Assembly (NCBI GenBank): GCA_041394905.1
Contig: JAWKHJ010000013.1
Location: forward strand, 49,306-113,305
DNA: 64,000 nucleotides
Source of the DNA: Bryobacterales bacterium
GTDB lineage: Bacteria; Acidobacteriota; Terriglobia; Bryobacterales; UBA6623
Reading direction: 5' to 3'
Positions 2,904 through 20,729 of the stretch are shown here, in pieces. Position numbers and translations under genes: made by a program. Numbering within the stretch: the stretch's first letter is position 1; every line of letters starts with the position of its first letter. Below the pieces are notes generated by a model. That model made no database searches. It worked only from the letters and a program-made list of their open reading frames with translations, and was not told where the DNA came from.

Positions 2904-4583
2904 TTACTTCTGGCGCTTCTGCATGCGCGCCCAGGTGTCGCGTAGCTCTACGGTGCGATTGAAGACAAGCTTGTCCGCTGTGGACGTCTTGTCGGCACAG
3001 AAGTAGCCCATACGCTCGAATTGAACGCGGTCACCGGGCTTGGCGGCCGCGAGCGCAGGCTCGGCCTTACCCTCGATCACTTCGAGCGAGTTGGGATTCA
3101 GGTTCGCCGTGAAGTCCTGGCCCTCTTCCACCTCGTTTGGGTTCTCTTTGTCGAAGAGCTTGTCGTAGAGGCGAATCTCGATGGGAACGGCCTGCGCCGC
3201 CGAGACCCAGTGGATGGTCGACTTGACCTTGCGCGTTTCGTGGCCGCTGGCGGTCTCCGGGTCGTAGGTGCAATGGATCTCGATGATCTCGCCCGTGGCG
3301 GAATCCTTCACGAAGTCTTCGCACTTGATGATGTAGCCGTAACGCAGCCGCGCCTCGTTGCCCGGGTAGAGCCGGTGGTAGCCCTTAGGCGGCTCTTCGC
3401 GGAAATCGTCCTGCTCGATCCACAACTCTCGCGTGAAGGGAACTGAGCGCGTACCGGCGTCCGGATCTTCCGGGTTGTTGACGGCCTCCTTGATCTCGAC
3501 TCGGCCCTCGGGGAAGTTCGTCAGGACAAGCTTGAGCGGACGCAGCACGGCCATCACGCGCGGCGAGGTGCGGTTGAGGTCGTTGCGAATGTGGTGCTCG
3601 AGCTTCTCGAGCTCGGTGACGCCGTTGGTCTTCGAGACGCCCAGGTCGCGGGCGAAACTGCGCAGGCCTTCGGGCGAATAGCCGCGGCGACGCATCCCGC
3701 TGATAGTCGGCATGCGCGGATCGTCCCAGCCTTCCACCGCGCCCTGCTGCACCAACTGCAACAGCTTGCGCTTGCTCATCACGGTGTAGGTCAGGTTGAA
3801 GCGGTCGAACTCGATCTGCTGCGGATGGAAAACTCCGAGCTGATCGAGGAACCAGTCGTACAGCGGGCGGTGATCCTCAAACTCGAGCGTGCAGATCGAG
3901 TGTGTGATGCCTTCGATCGAGTCGCTCTGCCCGTGCGCCCAGTCGTACATCGGATAAATGCACCACTTGTTGCCGGTGCGGTGATGTTCGGCGTGCAGGA
4001 TGCGGTACATCACCGGATCGCGCATGTTCAGGTTCGGCGACGCCATGTCGATCTTGGCGCGCAGCGTGCGCGACCCGTCGGCAAACTCTCCGGCTTTCAT
4101 GCGCGAAAACAGGTCGAGGTTTTCGTCGACGCTGCGGTCGCGGTAGGGACTGTTCGTTCCCGGTTGGGTGAGCGTGCCGCGCGACTGGCGCACTTGCTCG
4201 CCGTTCAGGTCGCAGACGTACGCCTTGCCCTTCTGGATCAGCTCGACCGCCCAATCATAGAGCTGCTGAAAGTAGTCGGAAGCGTAGAAGATGCGGTCGC
4301 CGAAATCGCCGCCCAGCCACTTGACGTCTTCGATGATCGACTGGACGTACTCGGACTCTTCCTTGGTCGGGTTCGTGTCGTCGAAGCGCAAATTGCACTT
4401 ACCGCCAAACTCTTCGGCCAAACCGAAATTGACGGTGATGCTCTTGGCGTGGCCGACGTGCAGGTAGCCGTTCGGTTCCGGCGGAAAGCGAGTGTGGACG
4501 CGCCCCTGGTAGCGGCCGCTGTCGGTATCGGCGCGCACCATGTCGCGCAAAAAATTCGAACGGGGCAGATCGGCGTCCGTCAT
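2904..4583 (-). CDS. glnS: glutaminyl-tRNA synthetase
   Basis: 559 aa intact ORF. Class I signatures [17 protein letters not shown] and VMSKRKL, with full-length GlnRS-like sequence. Confidence 0.95.
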
Positions 4584-6010
4584 AGCAGGGCTCCCAAAGC
4601 AGAATCGAGGCGGGCGAGGACGTCTTCGCGTCCGACAGCCTCGAGCGTTTCAAAAAGAGGAGGCGCGTTCTTGCGTCCGCACACGGCCACGCGAATGGGC
4701 TGGAACATCTGTCCGGCCTTGACGCCGAGCGCGTCGGAGGCGTCGCGCAGCACGGTCTCGAGCGTGGCGTGGTCGAAGGCGGGCGCGGCGGCGAGAGCCT
4801 CTTTGGCCTTGCGCAGCGCGTCAGCCGCCATCGCGGCGTCGCCCTTCTTCGGGATCAGCTCTTCGACGTCGTAGCTCTGCGGCGCAACGAAGAAGAAGTC
4901 CGCGACGGAGGCGACCTCTCCCAGCAGGCGGATGCGCTCCTGGATCAGCGGCGTGATCGTGCGCAGCTTCTGCTCGGTCGCCCCCTCGAAGCCCGCTTGC
5001 TCTGCGTAGGGCTGCAGCCGGCGAGTCAGTTCGTCGAGATCGAGCGAGCGGATGTGCTCGGCGTTCAGCCAGAGCGCCTTCGGGTCGAAGGGCTCTTCTT
5101 CGGTGAAGTTGATGATCGCGTTGGCACGATTGATGCCGTCGAGTGAGAAGAGCTCGGTGAGCTCGCCGAGCGACATCTTCTCGCGATCGTTCTTGGGCGA
5201 CCAGCCCAGCAGACACAAGAAATTGACGAAGGCGTGCGGCAAGAAGCCGGCGTCGCGGTAGGTGGTCACACTGACCACCGGACCGTGGATGCGCTTGGAA
5301 AGCTTCGTGCCGTCGGGCGCCATCAGCAGCGGCAGGTGCGCCATGCGCGGGGCCTGCGCGCCGAGGGCCTCGAAGATGAGCATGTGCTTGAAAGTGTTCG
5401 CCAGATGCTCTTGGCCGCGCAGAATGTCCGTAATGCGCAGGTCGGCGTCATCGGCGCACGAGGCCATGTGGTAGGTCGGCACGCCGGAGGAGCGCAGCAG
5501 CGCGAAGTCCTCCAGGTCGCCCGTCGACTTGGTCACCCTGCCATAAACGCCGTCGTCGACCACAACCTCTTCGCCCGCCCCGCGCGGCACGCGGAAGCGC
5601 AGCACGAACGGCTCGCCCGCGTCGGCGCGGCGGTCGCTCTCTTCGCGTGTCAGCTCGCGCATGCCGGGGTTGAACAGCCACCCGCCGGTCTGATTCTCCG
5701 GCTGCGCGTCGGCCGGCGTGAAGTCGCGGTACGCCAGCCCCTTCTCGAAGATCGACCAGGCGGCCTGGCGATGCAGATCCAGCCGGTCGGACTGGCGGTA
5801 GAGCTCGTCCCAGCCCAGCTCGAGCCACTCCAGGCCCTCAAAAATGGAGTCGAGAGACGCCTGTGTGTTGCGCTCCACGTCAGTGTCGTCGATGCGCAGG
5901 ACGACCTGACCGCCTTGGCGGCGGGCGTGGAGCCAGTTGAAGATGAACGTCCGGGCGCCCCCGATGTGGAGGTAGCCCGTCGGCGACGGCGCGAAGCGAA
6001 CACGAATCAT
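4580..6010 (-). CDS. gltX: glutamyl-tRNA synthetase
   Basis: 476 aa intact [20 protein letters not shown] and KLSKR motifs. Its stop overlaps the glnS start (ATGA at 4580-4583). Confidence 0.95.
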
Positions 6011-6084
6011 AGCTGGAAATTTAAGAGTAGCTCAGGCCCGTGGCGCCACGGGCGGCTCTTGCAGTGCGAGGCGGGTGATCTATT

Positions 6085-6110
6085 GTGATATTCAGGATGC
6101 ATCTTTATAG
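6085..6110 (+). promoter_or_regulatory. operator-like motif ATGCATCTTTATAG overlapping the start of the CxxCH paralog A / Rrf2 unit
   Basis: Core ATGCATCTT at 6097-6105, preceded by TGTGATATT (extended -10-like). The same 9-mer plus (T)ATAG recurs at 8579-8590 in front of the truncated hemoglobin. The reverse complement AAGATGCAT resembles the NsrR half-site as I recall it (AAnATGCATTT). Confidence 0.35.
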
Positions 6111-7425
6111 GTCGCGTTGGATCGTCCTGGCGCTTGGGGCGCTGGCGGGTGCGGTACTGCTGTCAGGCCAACCGGCTAGCCTGATCGACGAGACGCGCAC
6201 GCTGCCTTCCGAGCATCCCGCCATTGACTACTGGAGCGCGGAGCCGGACGACGCCATCGCGCGCTTGCAGCGTCGCCTGGAAAGCGGCGAGGCGACGCTC
6301 GAGCATGACGCCCGTTTCGGCTATCTGCCGGCGGTTCTGGAAGCGCTCGACGTTCCGGTCTCGTCGCAGATCCTCGTGTTCTCGAAAACCAGCTTCCAGG
6401 CTGTGCGGATCTTCCCGCGAATGCCGCGCGCGATCTATCACAACGACACCATTTCAGTCGGCTGGGTGCGTAGCGGCGACGTCGTAGAGGTAGCCTCGCT
6501 CGACCCGAAGCTCGGCGTCGTCTTCTACACGCTGGACCAAGCTCGCCGCTCGCAACCGCGCTTCCAGCTACGCACCACCGAATGCATCTCCTGCCACGCC
6601 GGCCCGGCGACACTCGGCATTCCGGGCCTGCTGGTGCGCTCGGTCCACCCCGATCGCAGCGGCGCTCCCTTGCGTGCTCCCACCTTCATCACCGACCACC
6701 GCAGCCCGATCGAGGACCGCTGGGGCGGCTGGTACGTCTCTGGCGAGAGCGGCGCGCGACGGCACTTGGGCAACGTGATCTACGAGGTCGGCCGCCAGCC
6801 GTCGAGTCTGCTCGACGGCAAGCCGGGAATGACTTCGAGCCTCGAGCCTTACGTCAGCGACGTCAACTACCTGCGCGCGACCAGCGACGTCGTCTCCCTG
6901 ATGGCGCTCGAGCACCAGACGCGCATGACTAACCTGATTGTCCGATTGGGCTACGAGACGCGCATCGCACTGCATGACCAGCCAGGCGTCGATTCGCTCG
7001 CCCATCTCGGCGAGGGAAGTCGCGAGACGATCCGCAACACAGCCGAGGAACTACTCCGCTACACACTCTTCATCGACGAGGCGCCGCTCGATGAACCTGT
7101 TCGCGGTAGTGCCGACTTCGCACGCGACTTTGAGGCTGCTGGCAAGCGCGACCACCAAGGCCGCTCGCTGCACGAACTCGACCTCGACGGTCGCCTGCTG
7201 CGCTATCCGTGCAGTTATATGATCGAGTCCGACGCGTTTGAAGCGTTGCCCACCCTTGCCAAGGCCTATCTCTACGAGCGCCTGTGGGCCGTGCTCAGCG
7301 GGAAGGATCGCTCCGAGCCTTATGCGGGGCTCGCGGCGGAAGACCGTCAAGCGATCGCGGAGATCTTGGCCGACACTAAGGACGATCTGCCCGACTATTG
7401 GATGAAGAGCGCCGCTGGGCGATGA
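6097..7425 (+). CDS. uncharacterised secreted protein with a single heme-c motif (CISCH), paralog A
   Basis: The ORF track starts at GTG 6085. ATG 6097 gives MHLYRSRWIVLALGALAGAVLLSG, which is signal-peptide-like. Contains TECISCHAG. It aligns block by block with ORF 9087..10202 (FSKTSFQAVRIFPRMPRAIYHNDTISVGWVRSG vs FSKTSAQFRLISPRSPRAVYFNDDVYVGWVRGG). Confidence 0.7.
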   Translation: MHLYRSRWIVLALGALAGAVLLSGQPASLIDETRTLPSEHPAIDYWSAEPDDAIARLQRRLESGEATLEHDARFGYLPAVLEALDVPVSSQILVFSKTSFQAVRIFPRMPRAIYHNDTISVGWVRSGDVVEVASLDPKLGVVFYTLDQARRSQPRFQLRTTECISCHAGPATLGIPGLLVRSVHPDRSGAPLRAPTFITDHRSPIEDRWGGWYVSGESGARRHLGNVIYEVGRQPSSLLDGKPGMTSSLEPYVSDVNYLRATSDVVSLMALEHQTRMTNLIVRLGYETRIALHDQPGVDSLAHLGEGSRETIRNTAEELLRYTLFIDEAPLDEPVRGSADFARDFEAAGKRDHQGRSLHELDLDGRLLRYPCSYMIESDAFEALPTLAKAYLYERLWAVLSGKDRSEPYAGLAAEDRQAIAEILADTKDDLPDYWMKSAAGR

Positions 7426-7432
7426 GAAGCGC

Positions 7433-7912
7433 ATGCACCTGACCTTTCACACCGACTACGCTCTGCGCGTTCTGCTTTATCTGCGTCTGCGCGGAGAAGA
7501 GAAGTCGACCGTGCAAGAGATCGCCGACGCCTATGCGATCTCGAAGAACCATCTGATGAAGGTCGTGCAACGGCTCGCCGGGTTGGGTTACGTGGACGCG
7601 AGCCGCGGTCGAGGTGGCGGGCTGCTGCTGGCGCTTGCGCCGGAGCAGGTGAACCTGGGCCGTCTGGTCGAGCAGATGGAGCCGAGCCTCGACTTGGTGG
7701 AATGCTTCGACATGGAGACGAACACATGCGCGATTGCGCCGGTGTGCGACTTGAAGGGCGTGCTGGGCGAGGCGCAACGGGCCTTCTTGCGCACGCTGCA
7801 CGGTTACACACTGGCGGACCTGGGGCAGCGCAAGAAGAAGCTACAAACGATTCTGGGAATCCCAACGGCTGAGGCTAGTGCGGCTGAGGCGCACGCATCC
7901 GGAAGTGCGTGA
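7433..7912 (+). CDS. Rrf2-family transcriptional regulator (NsrR/IscR-like, three-Cys cluster site)
   Basis: MHLTFHTDYALRVLLYL.. is a winged-HTH N-terminus typical of Rrf2. Cys triad ECFDMETNTCAIAPVC (C-x7-C-x5-C). Starts 7 nt after paralog A. Confidence 0.85.
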   Translation: MHLTFHTDYALRVLLYLRLRGEEKSTVQEIADAYAISKNHLMKVVQRLAGLGYVDASRGRGGGLLLALAPEQVNLGRLVEQMEPSLDLVECFDMETNTCAIAPVCDLKGVLGEAQRAFLRTLHGYTLADLGQRKKKLQTILGIPTAEASAAEAHASGSA

Positions 7913-8521
7913 TCGTCCCGATCGCGAGCTCGCGCGTGCGCAGCGCCTCGAGCTGTTCCGCGCCCGTTGCCGCGAGCAGCTCCTCGAAGCCGCCATCGGC
8001 GTGGTCCTCGGTTTCAGCGAAGCCGTCGACCAGGCGGACGATCACGAAGCCCAGCCGCGCCGAGCCTTTGGGTTCGGTCCAGTCGGTGACGAACAGGCGT
8101 CCGCCCGGACGCAGCACCCGCAGCGCCTCGGCCAGCCCGGCTTGCTTGGTTTGACGCTTCATGTGGTGCAGCATCAGCGTCATCGTCACGCGGTCGAATG
8201 TCGCGTCAGGGAAGGGAAGAGCCTGCGCAAAACCCGCCACCCAGGAGGCTTTACCCGCCGTCTGCGTGTGGGCGTGGCGCAGCATGGAGACGTCCGGGTC
8301 GAGGCCCACCATGCGCGCTTCGGGCTCGATAGTGAGCGCGGCTTGCGCCAGCGTTCCCGGGCCGCAGCCCAGGTCGAGCGCGCATCCCCGGCTGCAGCTC
8401 GAGGTCGCGCGCGATCACGTGCGGCAGATCGGTGAGCGAAAACCAACGCACAACACGGACATAGAGCGACACGGACCGCCAACGGCCCAGCGCGGGAACC
8501 CATTTCTTCGAGGCTGCTCAT
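7875..8521 (-). pseudogene. class I SAM-dependent methyltransferase (UbiE/COQ5-like), two frame changes near 8380-8390 and 8465-8480
   Basis: ORF 7875..8312 holds the C-terminal part (FDRVTMTLMLHHM, LRPGGRLFV). Another frame reads ALDLGCGPGTLAQAALTIEPEARMVGLDPD (motif I). The N-terminal pieces lie in ORFs 8251..8472 and 8186..8521. Confidence 0.7.
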
Positions 8522-8564
8522 CGAAAGGCTCCGTTCTGTTGACGATCCATCAGCCGCATGCTTA

Positions 8565-8587
8565 AAGTAGTATTATGAATGCATCTT
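8565..8587 (+). promoter_or_regulatory. imperfect 11-1-11 inverted repeat AAGTAGTATTA-t-GAATGCATCTT at the truncated hemoglobin start (NsrR-type operator candidate)
   Basis: Read directly from the sequence. The right half matches the E. coli NsrR half-site as I recall it (AAATGCATnTT) at 10 of 11 positions. The left half is self-complementary to it at 7 of 11. It overlaps ATG 8575. No Shine-Dalgarno sequence lies upstream, and TTGACG at 8539-8544 is a possible -35. Confidence 0.35.
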
Positions 8588-9011
8588 ATAGCCTTCGTCC
8601 ACCCCTGAGCGTCATAGGCCGCCCCGGCGGCGTCTCTGACCAGGTCGATCCCGGCGTGATCGGTGCGGTCGTCGACGATTTCTATCGCTCTGCGCGGCAG
8701 GATGCGGATTTGGGGCCGGTTTTCGATGCGCATGTGCAGGACTGGGACTCGCATTTGGCGACCATGCGAAGGTTCTGGGCTTCGGTGCTGCTGGGCGAGC
8801 GCAGCTATTCCGGCAACCCGTTCGTCAAGCATGCGGCCGTGCCGGAGCTGAGCGCCGATCATTTTCGCAAATGGCTTACGCTTTTTCTAAGACGTTGAGT
8901 CGGCACTGCGCCCCCGACGACGCCGCCGCCTGGGAGCGCACCGCCCGGCGGATGGGGTTTGCCATGTCGTCGCGCCTTGGATTCGGTGAGATCGAGGATC
9001 TGCTGCCGTGA
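8575..9011 (+). pseudogene. group III truncated hemoglobin, one frame change in a T5 run (8882-8886)
   Basis: ORF 8575..8898 (..VIGAVVDDFYRSARQDADLGPVFDAHVQDWDSHLATMRRFWASVLLGERSYSGNPFVKH..) looks like a trHb III. One extra T would give WLTLFSKTLSRHCAPDDAAAWERTARRMGFAMSS..LLP, with the stop at 9009-9011. Confidence 0.75.
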
Positions 9012-10202
9012 AACTGCTGCGCCGCTCTCTGTTGGGCCTCTCTGCTCACCGCCGCGCTCGGCCTCGGTGCGAACCCGGTCGAGCGGTTGCAGCAGCGCAT
9101 CGACGCGGGCGAGGTCCGGCTCGAGTATACGGCGCCGCGCGGCTATCTCGATTCGCTGCTGGAGGCCTTTGGCATCGATCCACAAACGCAGACGCTGGTC
9201 TTTTCGAAGACGAGCGCGCAGTTTCGGCTGATCTCTCCACGCTCGCCGCGCGCGGTCTACTTCAACGACGATGTCTACGTAGGTTGGGTGCGCGGCGGTC
9301 CGATCCTCGAAATCTCGACGGCGGACACGGAGCGCGGCGCGGCATTCTATGTCCTACTGCAGGACGCCAACGCAAAGCCCAAGCTCATGCGCGACGTGGG
9401 CGGGCAGTGCCTGCAATGTCACGAGTCGGGACGTACGGGGCGTGTTCCCGGGCACCTGACACGTTCGCTCTACGTCGCGCCCGACGGCCAGCCGGAGCTG
9501 CGCCTGGGCAGCGTGGACGTCGACCAGACGACTCCGCTTTCCGAGCGTTTCGGCGGCTGGTTCGTCACCGACGCCGTGTTCGATCATCGCGGCAACCAGC
9601 TGTTGACGTCCCCCAACGACACGGAGACGACGACGCCGGTGTGGTTTGAGGACGTTCCTCGCAACGAGGAGTACCTGCGCCGCGACAGCAGCGTGCTGGC
9701 GCACCTGCTGCTGGCGCACCAGACGCAGACACACAACCGCATTGCGCGCGCGGGGCTGGAGGCGCGGAAGGCGATTGAATATCGCGACGAGATGCGACGG
9801 CTCTTCGGTGGCCCGAGCGAAGAGACCGAGGCGTCGGTGAAACGCCGCATCGCCGCGCCAGCCGAAGAACTGCTCGACTACCTGCTCTTCTCCAAGGAAG
9901 CCGCGCTACCGCCCGGCCGATACGCCGATACGCCGTTCGCCAGGTCGTTCTCGCAACGCGGTCCGCTCTACGCGCTCGACCTGCGAACACGCCTGCTGCG
10001 CGTTCCGCTCAGCTACCTGATCGCCTCGGAGTCTTTTGACGCGCTGCCGCCGGAGACGCTGGATTATCTGCGGGGCCGCTTCGTGCAGATCCTCGAAGGT
10101 GAAGACAAGAGTGGACGCTTCGCCCACCTCACGCCGGCCGATCGCGAGGCGGTCCGGCGGCTTCTACAAGCCGAGAAGCCAGGGTTCTTGCCCGCAAATT
10201 GA
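9008..10202 (+). pseudogene. uncharacterised secreted protein with a single heme-c motif (CLQCH), paralog B, frame change near 9026-9044
   Basis: ORF 9087..10202 carries GGQCLQCHESG and is paralogous to 6097..7425. GTG 9008 overlaps the trHb stop (GTGA) and gives MKLLRRSLLGLS. The next frame continues ..LLTAALGLGANPVERLQQRID, so the signal peptide is split across two frames in a CT-repeat context. Confidence 0.7.
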
Positions 10203-10233
10203 GAAGCACGTTCCCTGATGCAATCCGTCAGTG

Positions 10234-10257
10234 CCGCACCTGTGAAGGTGCGGTTTT
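10234..10257 (+). terminator. intrinsic terminator after paralog B
   Basis: CCGCACC-tgtgaa-GGTGCGG followed by TTTT, 32 nt after the stop at 10202. Confidence 0.6.
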
Positions 10258-10312
10258 CGGAGGCTTCCAAGGTCGTGAATCCCCCTCTTTGTGGCGCAGG
10301 CCGCCTTGCGTT

Positions 10313-10537: not shown

Positions 10538-10614
10538 TGGTCGGGCCGCCGAGATTTGAACTCGGGACCTCTTCCACCCCAAGGAAGCGCGCTACCAGGC
10601 TGCGCTACGGCCCG
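10538..10614 (-). tRNA. tRNA-Pro (anticodon GGG)
   Basis: The minus strand reads CGGGCCG TA GCGC AGCCTGGTA GCGC G CTTCC TTGGGGT GGAAG AGGTC CCGAG TTCAAAT CTCGG CGGCCCG A CCA. This is 77 nt with a full cloverleaf, G37 and an encoded CCA. Confidence 0.9.
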
Positions 10615-16576: not shown

Positions 16577-17948
16577 TCACGTCAAGATTTCCTCTACTAC
16601 CCGTCCGTGGACGTCCGTCAGGCGGAAGTCGCGGCCGGAGTAGCGGTAGGTGAGCTTGGTGTGGTCCAAACCGAGGATGTGCAGCATCGTGGCATGTAGG
16701 TCGTGCAGGTGGACCTTGCCTTCGACCGCCGCGCCCGTGGCGTCACATTGACCGTGGCGAATGCCGCCCTTCACCCCGCCGCCGGCGAGCCACATGGTGT
16801 ACCCGCGGTTGTTGTGCGCGCGTCCGTCGCCTTGGTTGTTCTGCTCGTAGCTGGTGCGGCCGAACTCGCCGCCCCAAACGAAGAGCGTGTCGTCGAAGAG
16901 CCCACGCTGCTTCATGTCGGTCAGCAAGGCCGCGATCGGCTTGTCGATGGCGGTGGCGTTCTCGAGGATCTTCTTGCGTAACTGTTGGTGCTGGTCCCAG
17001 CCGTTCTTGCCGAGCCTCGATGAAGCGTACGCCGGACTCAGCCATGCGCCGCGCCAGAAGGCATTGCGTGCCGAACTCCTGGGTGGCCGGGTCGTTCAAG
17101 CCGTACATCTCGCGCGTGGCGTCGCTCTCCTGGCTTAGGTCCATCAGCTCGGGCACGGACGACTGCATGCGGAAGGCGAGCTCGTAGGATTGGATGACGC
17201 CTTCGACCTGGTTGTCGACCTTGGAGCGCTCGAGCATCTCCTGATTCATCTCTTGGATGAAGTCGAGCTCGGCGCGTTGCGCTTGAGAGCTGAGACGCGC
17301 GTTGCGGATGTTCTCGATCGGGTCCTTGCCCTTCTCGATCGTGATGCGCGTGCCCTGGTAGCTAGCCGGCAGGAAGGCTGAGCCGTAGTTGAGCGCGCCG
17401 CCGACCGGAGGCGGGTTCATCGTGATGAAGCCGGGCAGGTCCTGATTTTCCGTACCTAGACCATAAAGCGCCCAGGCGCCCATTGAGGGGCGCACGAAGG
17501 TGATGTTGCCGCAATGCGTGAAGATGGAGGCCTGTGGATGCGCCGGCGTGTCGGTGACCATGCCGTTGAGCAGGCACAGGCTGTCGGCATGCTTGCCCAG
17601 GTGCGGGAAGACTTCCGAGATGGGCAGGCCGCTTTCGCCATGGCGTTTGTACTGATAGACCGGCGCGAGCACTTTGCCCTTACGCTTGTTGCCGTTGACC
17701 TCGGACTCCGCCGTGGCGCCGGCCGCCGCGACGATCTCTTCGTTGTAGTCGAAGGTTTCGTGCTGGCTGGGGGCGCCCTGCATGAACAGGAAGATCACAC
17801 GTTTGGCGCGCGGGGCGAAGTGCGGCTGCTTGACGGTGAGCGGATTCTCGAATCCCGCCGTGGAGGCCGCGTTGGCCATGCTCGCAAAGGCAAGCGCGCC
17901 GAACCCGCAGGCCGTGCTCTCCAGGAATTTGCGGCGTGAATACGACAT
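16577..17948 (-). pseudogene. DUF1501 family protein (sulfatase/phosphatase-like fold, Tat-type signal), one frame change near 17008-17020
   Basis: ORF 16743..17948 starts MSYSRRKFLESTACGFGALAFASMANA. ORF 16577..16927 holds the C-terminus ([28 protein letters not shown]). A bridging frame reads [37 protein letters not shown]. Confidence 0.85.
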
Positions 17949-17972
17949 GACGGTCCCCTTTATCCCCTCTTG

Positions 17973-20459
17973 CTAACCCCTGTAGCGAAACTCCGCGCTG
18001 TTGAGCAGCGCATGGTAAAGCCTGGCCCACGCGGCTTGGCGCGCGTTGGCTGGCATGGGCGTCTGTGCGGCTTGTTTGCGCGCCTTGGCCCGGCGCGCCT
18101 TGCGCACTCGCGGTCCTTCGTCAGTGGCGGGTGGCTCGTAGCTTGCTGCGGCAGCCTTGACGAAGCGCAACGCGCTGTCGAGCTCCTTCGTCGTCGGTTC
18201 GCGCGAAAGGGTCTGCAAATACGCACGGCGCACGCGGTCGCGGGCCGACGTCTCACGCGCCATTAAGCGCTCCGCCGCCACCAGCGTGTTACGTGCCACG
18301 AACTCGTTATTCATTAGGAACAGCGCTTGCGGCTTCACCGTGGTCACCTCGCGCGCCCCGTGAGTTTCGCTCGGCTCGGGGAAGTCGAACGTCTCGTAGA
18401 AACGGTTGACCATGTTGCGCACCACCGGCACGTACACGCTGCGCAGGGTCGACTCGGTCTCCCAGGGCTCCACTTGCCGATTGTTGAGCTGCACCAGCTT
18501 GTTGCGGTTGAACTCGTAGACGGGCGACGCTTCAGGCCGCGCCAGACTCAGCTCGCCGCTGACCGCGAGCACGGCGTCGCGCAAGGCCTCGGCCTCGAGC
18601 CGGCGGCGGTTGGCGCGCCAGTAGTAGTCGTTGTTCGGCTCGATCTCGAAGCTCTTCGCGTCGAAATCGGTGGAGAGTTGGTACGCGCGGCTCAGGGCGA
18701 CTTCGCGGATGAGCGACTTGACCGACCAGCCGCTCTCCATCAGGCGGACGGCGAGGTAGTCCAGCAGTTCAGGGTGGGTCGGCGCCTCGCCCATCTTGCC
18801 GAAGTTGTCGACGGTCTTGACGATGCCACGGCCAAACAGGTGATGCCAGACGCGATTCGCCATCACGCGCGCCGTCAGCGGGTTGTCCTCGCGCGTCAGC
18901 CACTCAGCCAATTGCAGCCGGCCGCTGGCCTTGCGCGGGATGGCTGGAACTTCGGCGTCCGGTGCGTAGACCGCTTGGACAAAACCGCGCGGCGCTTCGT
19001 CACCAAGCTCGTGCGGATCGCCGCCGATGTTGACGCGGCAGGTCTGCGGCCGGCGCGCCTCAGCCACACCCATGGCCAAGTTGCGCGGGATCGGCAGCTT
19101 GTCCAGCTCCCCGGCGATGCGGCGCACTTCGGTGCGGTTGCGGTCTTTTTCGGCCTGCGCGAGTTCCTCCCACAGCGCGGCGCGCTTGGCGTTGAGCTCG
19201 TCAGCGTCCTGGCCCTCATACGCGGGCAGACCTTCGAGCTCGATCAGTTGCTCGCGGTGAAAGTAGACGGCATTGAAGATGGGCCTCTGGCGCATGCCGG
19301 CCATCAGCTCAGTTGAGCGGAAAATGCCGGCCATGGCGTAATAGTCTTTCGTCGGGATGGGGTCGAACTTGTGGTCGTGGCAACGGGCGCAACCCACGGT
19401 CAGAGCCAGCACGCTGCGCGTGGTGACGTTGATCATCTCGTCCGCCACATCCATCGGGAAGAGCTTGCGATCGGGCTCGTTCAGATCGTGCGCGCCGAGC
19501 GCGAGAAAGCCGGTGGCGATCACCTGCTCGCGGTGTTGCGCGGCATCTGAGTAGGCAGCAGGTCGCCGGCGATCTGTTCGCGGATGAACTGGTCGAGGGG
19601 CTTGTCCGCGTTGAACGAGTCGATCACGTAGTCGCGGTAGCGCCGCGGCGAGCGGGAAGGGGGCGTTGCGCGTACGGCCGATTGTCTCGGCATAGCGCGC
19701 CACGTCGAACCAATGCCGCCCCCAGCGCTCGCCGAATTGCGGCGACGCCAGCAGGCGGTCAACGACCTTGGCAAAAGCCTCTTGTGTTGGCGCCGGATCG
19801 TTGACGAAGGCTTCGAGGTCTTCGACGCTTGGCGGCAGGCCGGTCAGGTCGAAGCTTACTCGCCGCAGTAGCGCCCCCCGGTCGGCGTCGGCGACCGGAT
19901 GGAGACCTTTTTCTTCGAGCTTGGCCAACACAAAGCGGTCGATGGCTCCGCGCGGCCAGTCCTTCTGCTGGACTTTGGGCGGCTTTGCAGACTTCGGGGC
20001 TTGAAAGGCCCAAAATGCGCGTCCCTTTTCGACGTCGATCGTCGACGCGGCCTGCGTCTTGCCCTCGCGCGGATCCGGCGCGCCCATCTCGATCCAGCGC
20101 GCAAAGTCCGCGATGACTTCCTCGGAGAGCTTGCCCTGCGGCGGCATCTTGAGCTTGCCGTCCTGCCGCAGCGCCTGCATCAGCAGTGAGCCCTCGGGGT
20201 CTCCCGGCACGATCGCTTCGCCGCGCGCGCCGCCGGAGAGCAGGCCGTGCTTGGTATCGACCGAAAGACCGCCCATGCGCGTCTTGTATTTGGCTGAGTG
20301 GCAGCCGTAGCAGTTCTTGGCGAGCGCAGGCCGGATCTTTGATTCGAACAGCTCGCGCTGCTCTTGGGTTAGCGTGTCGGCGGCGAAGGTGGGAGGGAGC
20401 GACAGCCCACCCGCCAGGACGACCGCGAGCCAAATGGGCGACAGTCTACGGGAGGTCAT
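17973..20459 (-). pseudogene. PSCyt1/DUF1549/DUF1553 protein (planctomycete-type cytochrome c domain), two nearby frame changes (near 19550-19560 and 19650-19662)
   Basis: Likely start MTSRRLSPIWLAVVLAGG at 20459. CYGCHS heme motif. The 862-aa ORF stays open, but the DUF1549 signature ([30 protein letters not shown]) is only readable in ORF 19520..19774. This implies a shift out of frame and back. Confidence 0.85.
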
Positions 20460-20729
20460 CTCTCTTCCTGGAGGATCAAAAATCCGTGTCAAGGTTAGCA
20501 GGAGAACAACTGGCTGTAAAGCATGGATGTATCTCCTCTGTAGTGCGGCTCTGGTTTCCATATGAGCCCTTTCGCACTAGCTCTCCGAAATTCCTTTGAA
20601 GGCGTTCATTTTTTCAATCTCTTTCCTCCTTAACTGGAGTACTCTATCCGCGCGGGTTTTTTTGTGGGGTTACACATCCGGGGCCCGCACCTGTAAATCC
20701 AAGCAAAGCGCTCTGAGGGAGGTATCCTC

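Follow-up and report, generated by a model that had tools for sequence, protein, structure and literature searches.

A candidate NsrR-type regulon in a Bryobacterales bacterium with a group III truncated haemoglobin and two members of an unclassified family of predicted exported haem c proteins

The window analysed here is a 64,000-nucleotide stretch of DNA from a Bryobacterales bacterium (assembly GCA_041394905.1, contig JAWKHJ010000013.1, positions 49,306 to 113,305). Two minus-strand genes, gltX (4580-6010) and a tRNA-Pro gene (10538-10614), enclose a region that carries two paralogous genes, A and B, of an unnamed family whose products are predicted to be exported mono-haem c proteins. Paralog A (6097..7425, plus strand) is an intact open reading frame (ORF) of 442 amino acids from an ATG at 6097 to a stop at 7425, with its CxxCH motif at C163-I-S-C166-H167, as an initial annotation of this DNA had read it. 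Probably co-transcribed with it is a gene for a 159-amino-acid NsrR-like repressor of the Rrf2 family (7433..7912, plus strand) with Asp8, Cys91, Cys99 and Cys105; its start at 7433 and these cysteines bear out the 7-nucleotide gap after A and the C-x7-C-x5-C spacing described earlier. A gene for an S-adenosylmethionine (SAM)-dependent methyltransferase (7875..8521, minus strand) diverges, across a common operator, from a gene for a group III truncated haemoglobin (trHb) of about 145 amino acids (8575..9011, plus strand). Paralog B (9008..10202, plus strand), with the haem motif CLQCH, follows the trHb gene. The methyltransferase, trHb and B frames are interrupted in the assembled sequence by indels that are considered below.

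What are A and B? They share 37% identity over 381 amino acids (BLASTP, E 2e-66), in keeping with the initial claim that the two align over most of their length, and the motifs quoted for them then (FSKTS, ERFGGW/DRWGGW and the LRYPCSY/LRVPLSY tail) are present. No named family had been recognised, and our profile searches likewise found no Pfam or NCBIfam model for either paralog; among 28 family members none gave a match even at E 10, a family profile run against PDB sequences returned only noise (E 0.7 or worse), and the family was not described in the searched literature. When 1.84 billion cluster representatives were searched exhaustively with a profile, 4,810 clusters (50% identity) were detected at E ≤0.001 and 1,679 at E ≤1e-30. 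Members are named only 'hypothetical protein' in their sources; the named records are mostly from Bryobacterales or Acidobacteriota, and in soil, wastewater and marine metagenomes the family is frequent among Bryobacterales.

Conservation was measured in 183 diverse members that are only 33-48% identical to A. The haem motif is kept almost without exception (C163 in 182 of 183, C166 and H167 in all 183), as the initial proposal of a mono-haem family requires, and exactly one CxxCH occurs in 148 of 149 cluster representatives. His273 (99%) and His223 (96%) are nearly invariant, as are Arg208, Gly210-Gly211-Trp212, Asn226, Arg111, Glu131 and Ser373 (96-100%). In all, some 35 positions are at least 95% conserved, distributed along the whole chain of about 400 residues.

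AlphaFold models of A (pLDDT 85.8, pTM 0.88) and B (pLDDT 88.6, pTM 0.87) share one order of elements. An N-terminal helix precedes a beta-rich domain; a short helix bearing the CxxCH comes next, then a loop-rich stretch and finally a long helical domain. The loop-rich stretch, modelled less confidently in A, may wrap the haem, which is absent from the model. The N-terminal helices are hydrophobic (residues 4-22 in A and 2-17 in B), and by eye the N-termini (MHLYRSRWIVLALGALAGAVLL.. and MKLLRRSLLGL..LLTAALGLGA) are positively charged and then hydrophobic, a pattern that does not distinguish a signal peptide from a membrane anchor. From the CxxCH motif together with this N-terminal signal, we infer that A and B are exported and that each carries one covalent c-type haem. 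Foldseek searches of both models against the PDB gave no match, the best E values being 1.1 (A) and 0.06 (B) with TM-scores of 0.10-0.17; rows for IDO1 and gyrase were rejected as weak on the same scores. Judged against the PDB only, the fold is provisionally new.

One member deserves separate mention. P0134 (L147 19-2634; the prefix L marks fetched loci throughout) is an 871-amino-acid ORF in which a full family domain stands behind a multi-pass membrane part resembling NnrS and a DUF1858 domain, although its NnrS match (Pfam E 0.008) lies below the cut-off. It may be a true fusion or two adjacent genes merged by an indel, and either would link the family to two NO-associated protein types. 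NnrS-like or DUF1858 neighbours were found in none of the 146 other fetched loci, so P0134 is a single case. A Pfam scan of nine other over-long family members yielded no informative fusions, with HEAT repeats in one.

The regulator beside paralog A belongs to the Rrf2 family (Pfam Rrf2, E 5.9e-32; TIGR00738, 102 bits against a cut-off of 73). Its best relative in the PDB is Streptomyces coelicolor NsrR (5N07, E 3.7e-19 over residues 1-133), with CymR the next-best solved Rrf2 protein at E 1.6e-05. Its three cysteines align with three cysteines of 5N07 that we take to be the cluster ligands of the Streptomyces protein, with a two-residue insertion between the first two, and its residue 8 is an aspartate. 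NsrR is a [4Fe-4S] repressor that is inactivated by nitrosylation by nitric oxide (NO). The score of the window protein falls below the NCBIfam NsrR equivalog cut-off, and we therefore call it NsrR-like, without claiming membership of the enterobacterial equivalog.

A second line of evidence comes from the DNA that such a regulator would bind. The intergenic region between the methyltransferase and trHb genes is AT-rich within a genome of 64% G+C. A promoter scan placed a sigma-70-like trHb-B promoter there (8539..8568, plus strand; TTGACG, 18 nucleotides, TAAAGT), and a promoter-like site on the minus strand (8601-8572) faces the methyltransferase gene. The palindrome at 8565-8587 (AAGTAGTATTATGAATGCATCTT, arranged 11-1-11 as AAGTAGTATTA-T-GAATGCATCTT) overlaps the -10 hexamers of both divergent sites and the ATG at 8575. 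Other loci have the TTGAC/TAAAGT arrangement upstream of their trHb genes as well. The box itself is conserved upstream of trHb in L001, L084, L085, L087, L089, L090, L107, L109 and L046, which with the window makes ten loci, and compensating changes among these sites preserve the palindrome. It fits both the published NsrR motif gATGyAT-N5-ATrCATc (PMC1274295) and the 11-1-11 sites of Escherichia coli NsrR, for example that of ytfE, AAGATGCATTTAAAATGCATCTT (PMC5320621); the sites of L046 (AAGATGTATTTACAATACATCTT) and L043 (AAGATGTATTCAGAATACATCTT) fit the motif perfectly. These NsrR-consensus palindromes, with the 5N07 relationship and the aligned cysteines, strengthen the initial assignment of the regulator to the NsrR type.

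Using a symmetrised matrix built from the ten trHb-promoter sites, we scanned the window and 1.26 Mb of fetched loci. The 8565-8587 box scores 40.5 bits. Only one other match of at least 14 bits occurs in the window, at 6081-6107 (18.6 bits), and none at that score arose in 30 shuffles. This weaker box, TTGTGATATTCAGGATGCATCTT (6083..6105), spans the ATG of paralog A; it is kept in L001, L002 and L003, and a stronger box (26.3 bits) precedes the A orthologue of L005. Across the fetched loci, all non-training matches of at least 16 bits lie directly upstream of a family gene with one exception, a second site in L046 beside its trHb-promoter box. The boxed family genes beyond the trHb sites are those of L005, L043, L117 and L127-L141: L043 has a Blastocatellia-labelled A-type gene facing a divergent NsrR-like gene (box 41.8 bits), the gene of L117 is B-like, and L127-L141 hold distant members, 31-39% identical, with no regulator nearby. 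In all, at least five separate lineage groups have an NsrR-type box ahead of trHb-B or of a family gene.

Boxes and regulators were also counted for 128 non-duplicate family genes with upstream sequence. An Rrf2 gene lies near 53 of them, which, together with the trHb counts below, agrees with the association of the family with Rrf2 and globin genes that was first noticed in this window. Eight of the nine family genes near an NsrR-like Rrf2 gene have an NsrR-type box, as do none of the 44 near a second Rrf2 subtype (described below) and 10 of the 75 with no Rrf2 gene nearby.

Two further observations concern the boxed promoters. The ATGs of A (6097-6099) and trHb (8575-8577) lie inside the right half-site (ATGCATC) of their boxes, 4 and 6 nucleotides, respectively, downstream of a -10-like hexamer; the same start position is occupied by GTG in L084 and ATG in L087, and the ATG stands 1-3 nucleotides past the box in L089, L107 and L109. 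The A and trHb mRNAs may be leaderless or nearly so. Among the distant boxed members, L127, L130, L135 and L138 (e.g. L127 2040-3131, minus strand) have their box in a divergent intergenic region common with a DUF4126 membrane-protein gene, which may be co-regulated since it shares that region; the DUF4126 gene is uninformative on function. Sulfatase and recF-like genes lie downstream of the distant boxed members.

The globin resembles a characterised protein. Read through its indel, the window trHb finds Campylobacter jejuni Ctb, the reference protein for group III trHbs, as its best PDB match (2IG3, E 7.7e-16), the next being a different trHb at E 0.44, and the alignment retains F-Y, W..H, DLGP.F, FW..LLGE..Y.G.P..KH and WL.LF. 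Its score against Pfam Bac_globin is 17.3 bits, under the cut-off of 21, but this model is poor for group III trHbs, and the L085 orthologue also reaches only a 'weak' match. Intact trHb genes encode 135-143 amino acids in L001 and L085. Of ten unique loci with a product at least 55% identical to B, eight have a group III trHb gene directly upstream of the B gene; none of the more distant B-like loci has one, and the trHb link is limited to a single clade. In four loci (L089, L107, L109 and L046) trHb and an NsrR-like Rrf2 gene are divergently arranged, which makes Rrf2-trHb-B a recurring module. The methyltransferase, found by Pfam Methyltransf_11/25 on a 3' ORF and of UbiE/Methyltransf_11 type, is intact at 216 amino acids in L001 and L003; a methyltransferase gene stands at this position only in the closest relatives of the window (L001, L002 and L003). 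Globins and tehB-like methyltransferase genes are already known members of NsrR regulons (PMC1274295).

Is the NsrR-like protein the only regulator associated with the family? It is not. An Rrf2 gene adjoins the A-type gene in 46 of 80 species-representative genomes, nearly always directly upstream on the same strand, and nearly all of these are of a second subtype that is 27-36% identical to the window regulator, starts M[LF]SQT.EYALR.. and has CPLG..H..LCPLH in place of the three-cysteine C-x7-C-x5-C. Examples are found in L007-L083 (e.g. L021 1340-1810 and L042 3443-3877), from about 44 species. Among the carriers is the cultured Paludibaculum fermentans, whose A-type gene follows this subtype in L038. 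An element of approximate form TGGATA-N4-TATCCAGATAT occurs in 39 of 40 such operons, in most of the 39 at 23-40 nucleotides before the Rrf2 start codon, compared with seven matches in 415 kb elsewhere. The two Cys-Pro dipeptides of this subtype might suggest haem or a 2Cys/2His metal site. In neighbour clustering of the 80 A-type loci, no real neighbour other than Rrf2 recurs; the remaining large clusters were rejected as shadow ORFs of GC-rich DNA.

The region is transcribed. RNA contigs from four wastewater metatranscriptomes cover A (6136-6503 and 6704-6888), the methyltransferase, trHb and B, and they bridge the trHb-B junction and continue to 9730. At the trHb promoter they begin at 8604 or later, with none over 8400-8603, a gap that agrees with transcription starting at or just past the 8565-8587 box.

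What, then, might this arrangement do? We propose that the region is an NO-responsive module controlled by an NsrR-type repressor and that its products include new periplasmic haem c proteins. With its cluster intact, the Rrf2 protein would bind the 8565-8587 palindrome and the weaker one at 6083-6105; the former would repress the divergent methyltransferase and trHb-B promoters, and the latter the A-nsrR operon, including the repressor's own gene. Damage to the cluster by NO would release the repressor and turn on A-nsrR, trHb-B and probably the methyltransferase gene. The products would be a cytoplasmic group III trHb and exported A and B proteins, each with one covalent c-type haem, B being translationally coupled to trHb. 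In the periplasm A and B would bind, reduce or oxidise NO or NO-derived species, using a haem pocket with His167 proximal and some of Arg208, His223, Asn226 and His273 distal, while the trHb would cover the cytoplasm. We consider the proposal as a whole probable. Its regulatory part, which draws on the regulator, the boxes and their distribution, is very probable; its chemical part, that A and B act on NO or a derivative, is put forward tentatively, as something we would sooner doubt than assume. The initial suggestion of a secreted mono-haem family in a periplasmic stress response is supported, though nitrosative and oxidative stress are inseparable from sequence.

Several observations weigh against this proposal. 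The regulator scores 113.5 bits against the NCBIfam NsrR model (NF008240; cut-off 182) and 111.3 bits against RirA (NF008886; cut-off 193), a near-tie, and its C-x7-C-x5-C spacing is one we take to be that of the iron sensor RirA. The box at the start of A is weak at 18.6 bits, with a poor left half. NsrR-type boxes occur in only 18 of the 128 sampled family genes, and 44 of the 128 are preceded by a gene of the second Rrf2 subtype. None of 146 loci had an NO reductase, hmp, hcp or ytfE gene beside it. There is no obvious physical reason for coupling a cytoplasmic globin to a periplasmic protein, and the proposed pocket residues fall partly in the lower-confidence part of model A (170-260). 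Finally, the RNA data are coarse at the level of contigs, may include DNA and give no 5' ends.

The nearest known systems are the NsrR regulons of proteobacteria, Bacillus and Streptomyces (hmp, nnrS, hcp, ytfE), including Legionella NsrR with glbN. The features held in common are a three-cysteine Rrf2 repressor, a gATGyAT-N5-ATrCATc-type palindrome on the promoter, a globin target and a methyltransferase gene behind the operator, as with tehB homologues (PMC1274295; PMC5320621). The present case differs in its acidobacterial (Bryobacterales) host, in a regulator under the NCBIfam NsrR cut-off, in a globin of group III rather than a flavohaemoglobin or a group I protein, and in targets that include two predicted exported haem c proteins, whose family is not known from any NsrR regulon. 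C. jejuni Ctb, the best solved relative of the window trHb, offers a second comparison. Ctb is NO-induced, under the control of the Crp/Fnr-type regulator NssR, and is not known to be coupled to a cytochrome, whereas the window trHb is preceded by an NsrR-type box and overlaps the gene of a predicted exported haem c protein by 4 nucleotides.

For A and B themselves the nearest functional analogy may be with two kinds of small mono-haem c protein of the periplasm, cytochrome c' (CycP) and cytochrome P460, which bind NO and hydroxylamine or convert them. The likeness would lie in export, a single CxxCH haem and a link to NO stress. In contrast, A and B have no sequence or fold similarity to these cytochromes, are three times larger, conserve other polar residues and carry their CxxCH mid-chain, between the beta-rich domain and the long helical domain. 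NnrS, a haem/copper membrane protein of NnrR and NsrR regulons, resembles A and B as an envelope haem protein that recurs in NO regulons; unlike them, it is an integral membrane protein with no CxxCH and no homology to the family.

Could the core role of the family be something other than NO chemistry? A and B might serve a broader Rrf2-sensed function in redox, iron/haem or oxidative stress, for example as a periplasmic peroxidase or a haem/iron handling protein, with the NsrR wiring a secondary recruitment in some lineages. The 44 family genes directly behind the second Rrf2 subtype, with an operator of its own and no NsrR-type box, would fit such a role, as would the near-equal RirA and NsrR scores of the window regulator. 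Peroxidase distal pockets use a His/Arg/Asn set, which the conserved residues of the family resemble. However, NsrR-type boxes recur in at least five separate family groups, including members about 32-39% identical that have no regulator nearby, which makes a single late recruitment hard to uphold. The trHb coupling and the NnrS-like/DUF1858 fusion of P0134 also point toward NO, and the signal of the second Rrf2 subtype could itself be NO. We regard this broader function as unlikely.

More doubtful still is that A and B are plain electron-transfer cytochromes that supply electrons to, or take them from, a redox enzyme in the periplasm or membrane. A carrier could well have a single c-type haem and be exported, as predicted for A and B, and the two invariant histidines (223 and 273) could give bis-His coordination. 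Yet a chain of about 400 residues with strongly conserved positions from end to end goes far beyond the needs of a carrier, neighbour clustering of the 80 loci revealed no conserved redox partner, and the family is unlike any cytochrome c Pfam family or solved fold. We judge this role quite improbable.

Before returning to the proposed NO-responsive module, the state of its genes must be considered. As assembled, the segment 9008..10202 is 1195 nucleotides long and not divisible by three, and its GTG at 9008 does not share the frame of the B ORF; the only open B frame (9087-10202, 371 amino acids) lacks a signal peptide. The trHb frame from 8575 closes at 8898 (107 amino acids), the frame ending in the GTGA overlap (TGA 9009-9011) carries only the trHb C-terminus, and a three-frame reading places the methyltransferase SAM motif LDLGCGPG outside every ORF that has a start codon. 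By aligning the window to L001, a syntenic Bryobacterales metagenome-assembled genome of about 90% nucleotide identity, and to L003, a 99.8%-identical assembly, we located four indels within 665 nucleotides (8378-9042). GC is missing at 8378 and again at 8513 in the methyltransferase, one base is missing from the T-run at 8882-8886 in trHb, and there is one extra C at 9042 in the B signal peptide.

Are these differences biological? All four positions read in frame-restoring form in Logan contigs of independent origin, namely DNA runs from wastewater and soil and metatranscriptomes from wastewater: GC is inserted at 8377 and 8512, T or C is inserted at 8881/8882, and one base is omitted at 9042 or 9037, the RNA contigs omitting one at 9042. 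Outside these positions, some of the contigs match the window at 100% identity. Because independent short-read DNA and RNA contigs agree on the restored frames, the four frame-breaking indels are most likely assembly errors. L003 points the same way: its methyltransferase and B are intact, B having 397 amino acids from the same GTG without the extra C, and it has an indel of its own (L003 5861) in the essential gene gltX. The real organism encodes a methyltransferase of 216 amino acids, a trHb of about 145 and a B protein of 397, whose GTG overlaps the trHb stop (GTGA); the restored frames and the 4-nucleotide overlap of the called trHb and B genes in L001, L002, L084 and L085 show this overlap to be real. 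The initial placement of B at 9008..10202 therefore holds for the architecture of the organism and its relatives, but not for the printed sequence, where the frame is broken. That trHb, B and the methyltransferase are decaying pseudogenes in this strain, leaving only A and the Rrf2 gene functional, would account for four indels so close together and for the trHb indel that the window shares with L003, yet we reject it on the read evidence as extremely improbable, given that four of four positions are restored, that L003 combines intact genes with a broken gltX, that two further window genes are also split, and that other signs of decay are absent, the frames being free of stop codons and the amino acids still conserved. 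The apparent pseudogene cluster is most likely an artefact of this assembly.

The two further split genes encode a molybdopterin oxidoreductase, in two overlapping ORFs (533-1972/1927-2883), and an OMP_b-brl_4 outer-membrane beta-barrel protein, likewise in two (20730-22829/22589-24130); for the former, short-read contigs show no indel at 1910-2005. With frame-breaking indels scattered in this way, gene calls in this genome should be used with care. Downstream of B, before tRNA-Pro(GGG), about 75 nucleotides are unrelated between the window (10228-10303) and the otherwise 99.8%-identical L003 (10135-10231), and this is a small replaced intergenic segment. Farther along the window (16743-20561, minus strand), a DUF1501 protein forms a pair with a PSCyt1-PSCyt2-PSD1 protein of 862 amino acids that has a 'Planctomycete cytochrome C' domain, and this pair is also present near the locus in L001; the organism thus makes further exported CxxCH proteins.

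NsrR control of a globin is already known. The searched libraries and literature give no account of the exported haem c family, of its predicted fold, of its coupling to a group III trHb or of a second Rrf2 subtype with an operator of its own. Periplasmic NO defence is poorly understood beside the cytoplasmic enzymes (Hmp, NorVW and Hcp), and the function of group III trHbs is still open. The two unclassified haem proteins are good candidates for a component of the bacterial NO response that acts in the periplasm and has so far gone undescribed. A bolder extension, which we offer as speculative and would not rely on, is that the A/B family represents periplasmic haem c enzymes of a new structural class, converting NO or a close derivative (nitroxyl, hydroxylamine or peroxynitrite), that in the B clade B and trHb form a two-compartment pair with B as the outer half, and that the second Rrf2 subtype is a new sensor of the same signal. 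If true, B would be the first defined functional partner for the long-enigmatic group III trHb. The second subtype with its own operator is an untouched regulator family. By comparative genomics, a widespread protein family with no entry in Pfam, NCBIfam or the PDB falls in an NO-type regulon, which would permit the annotation of thousands of 'hypothetical proteins'.

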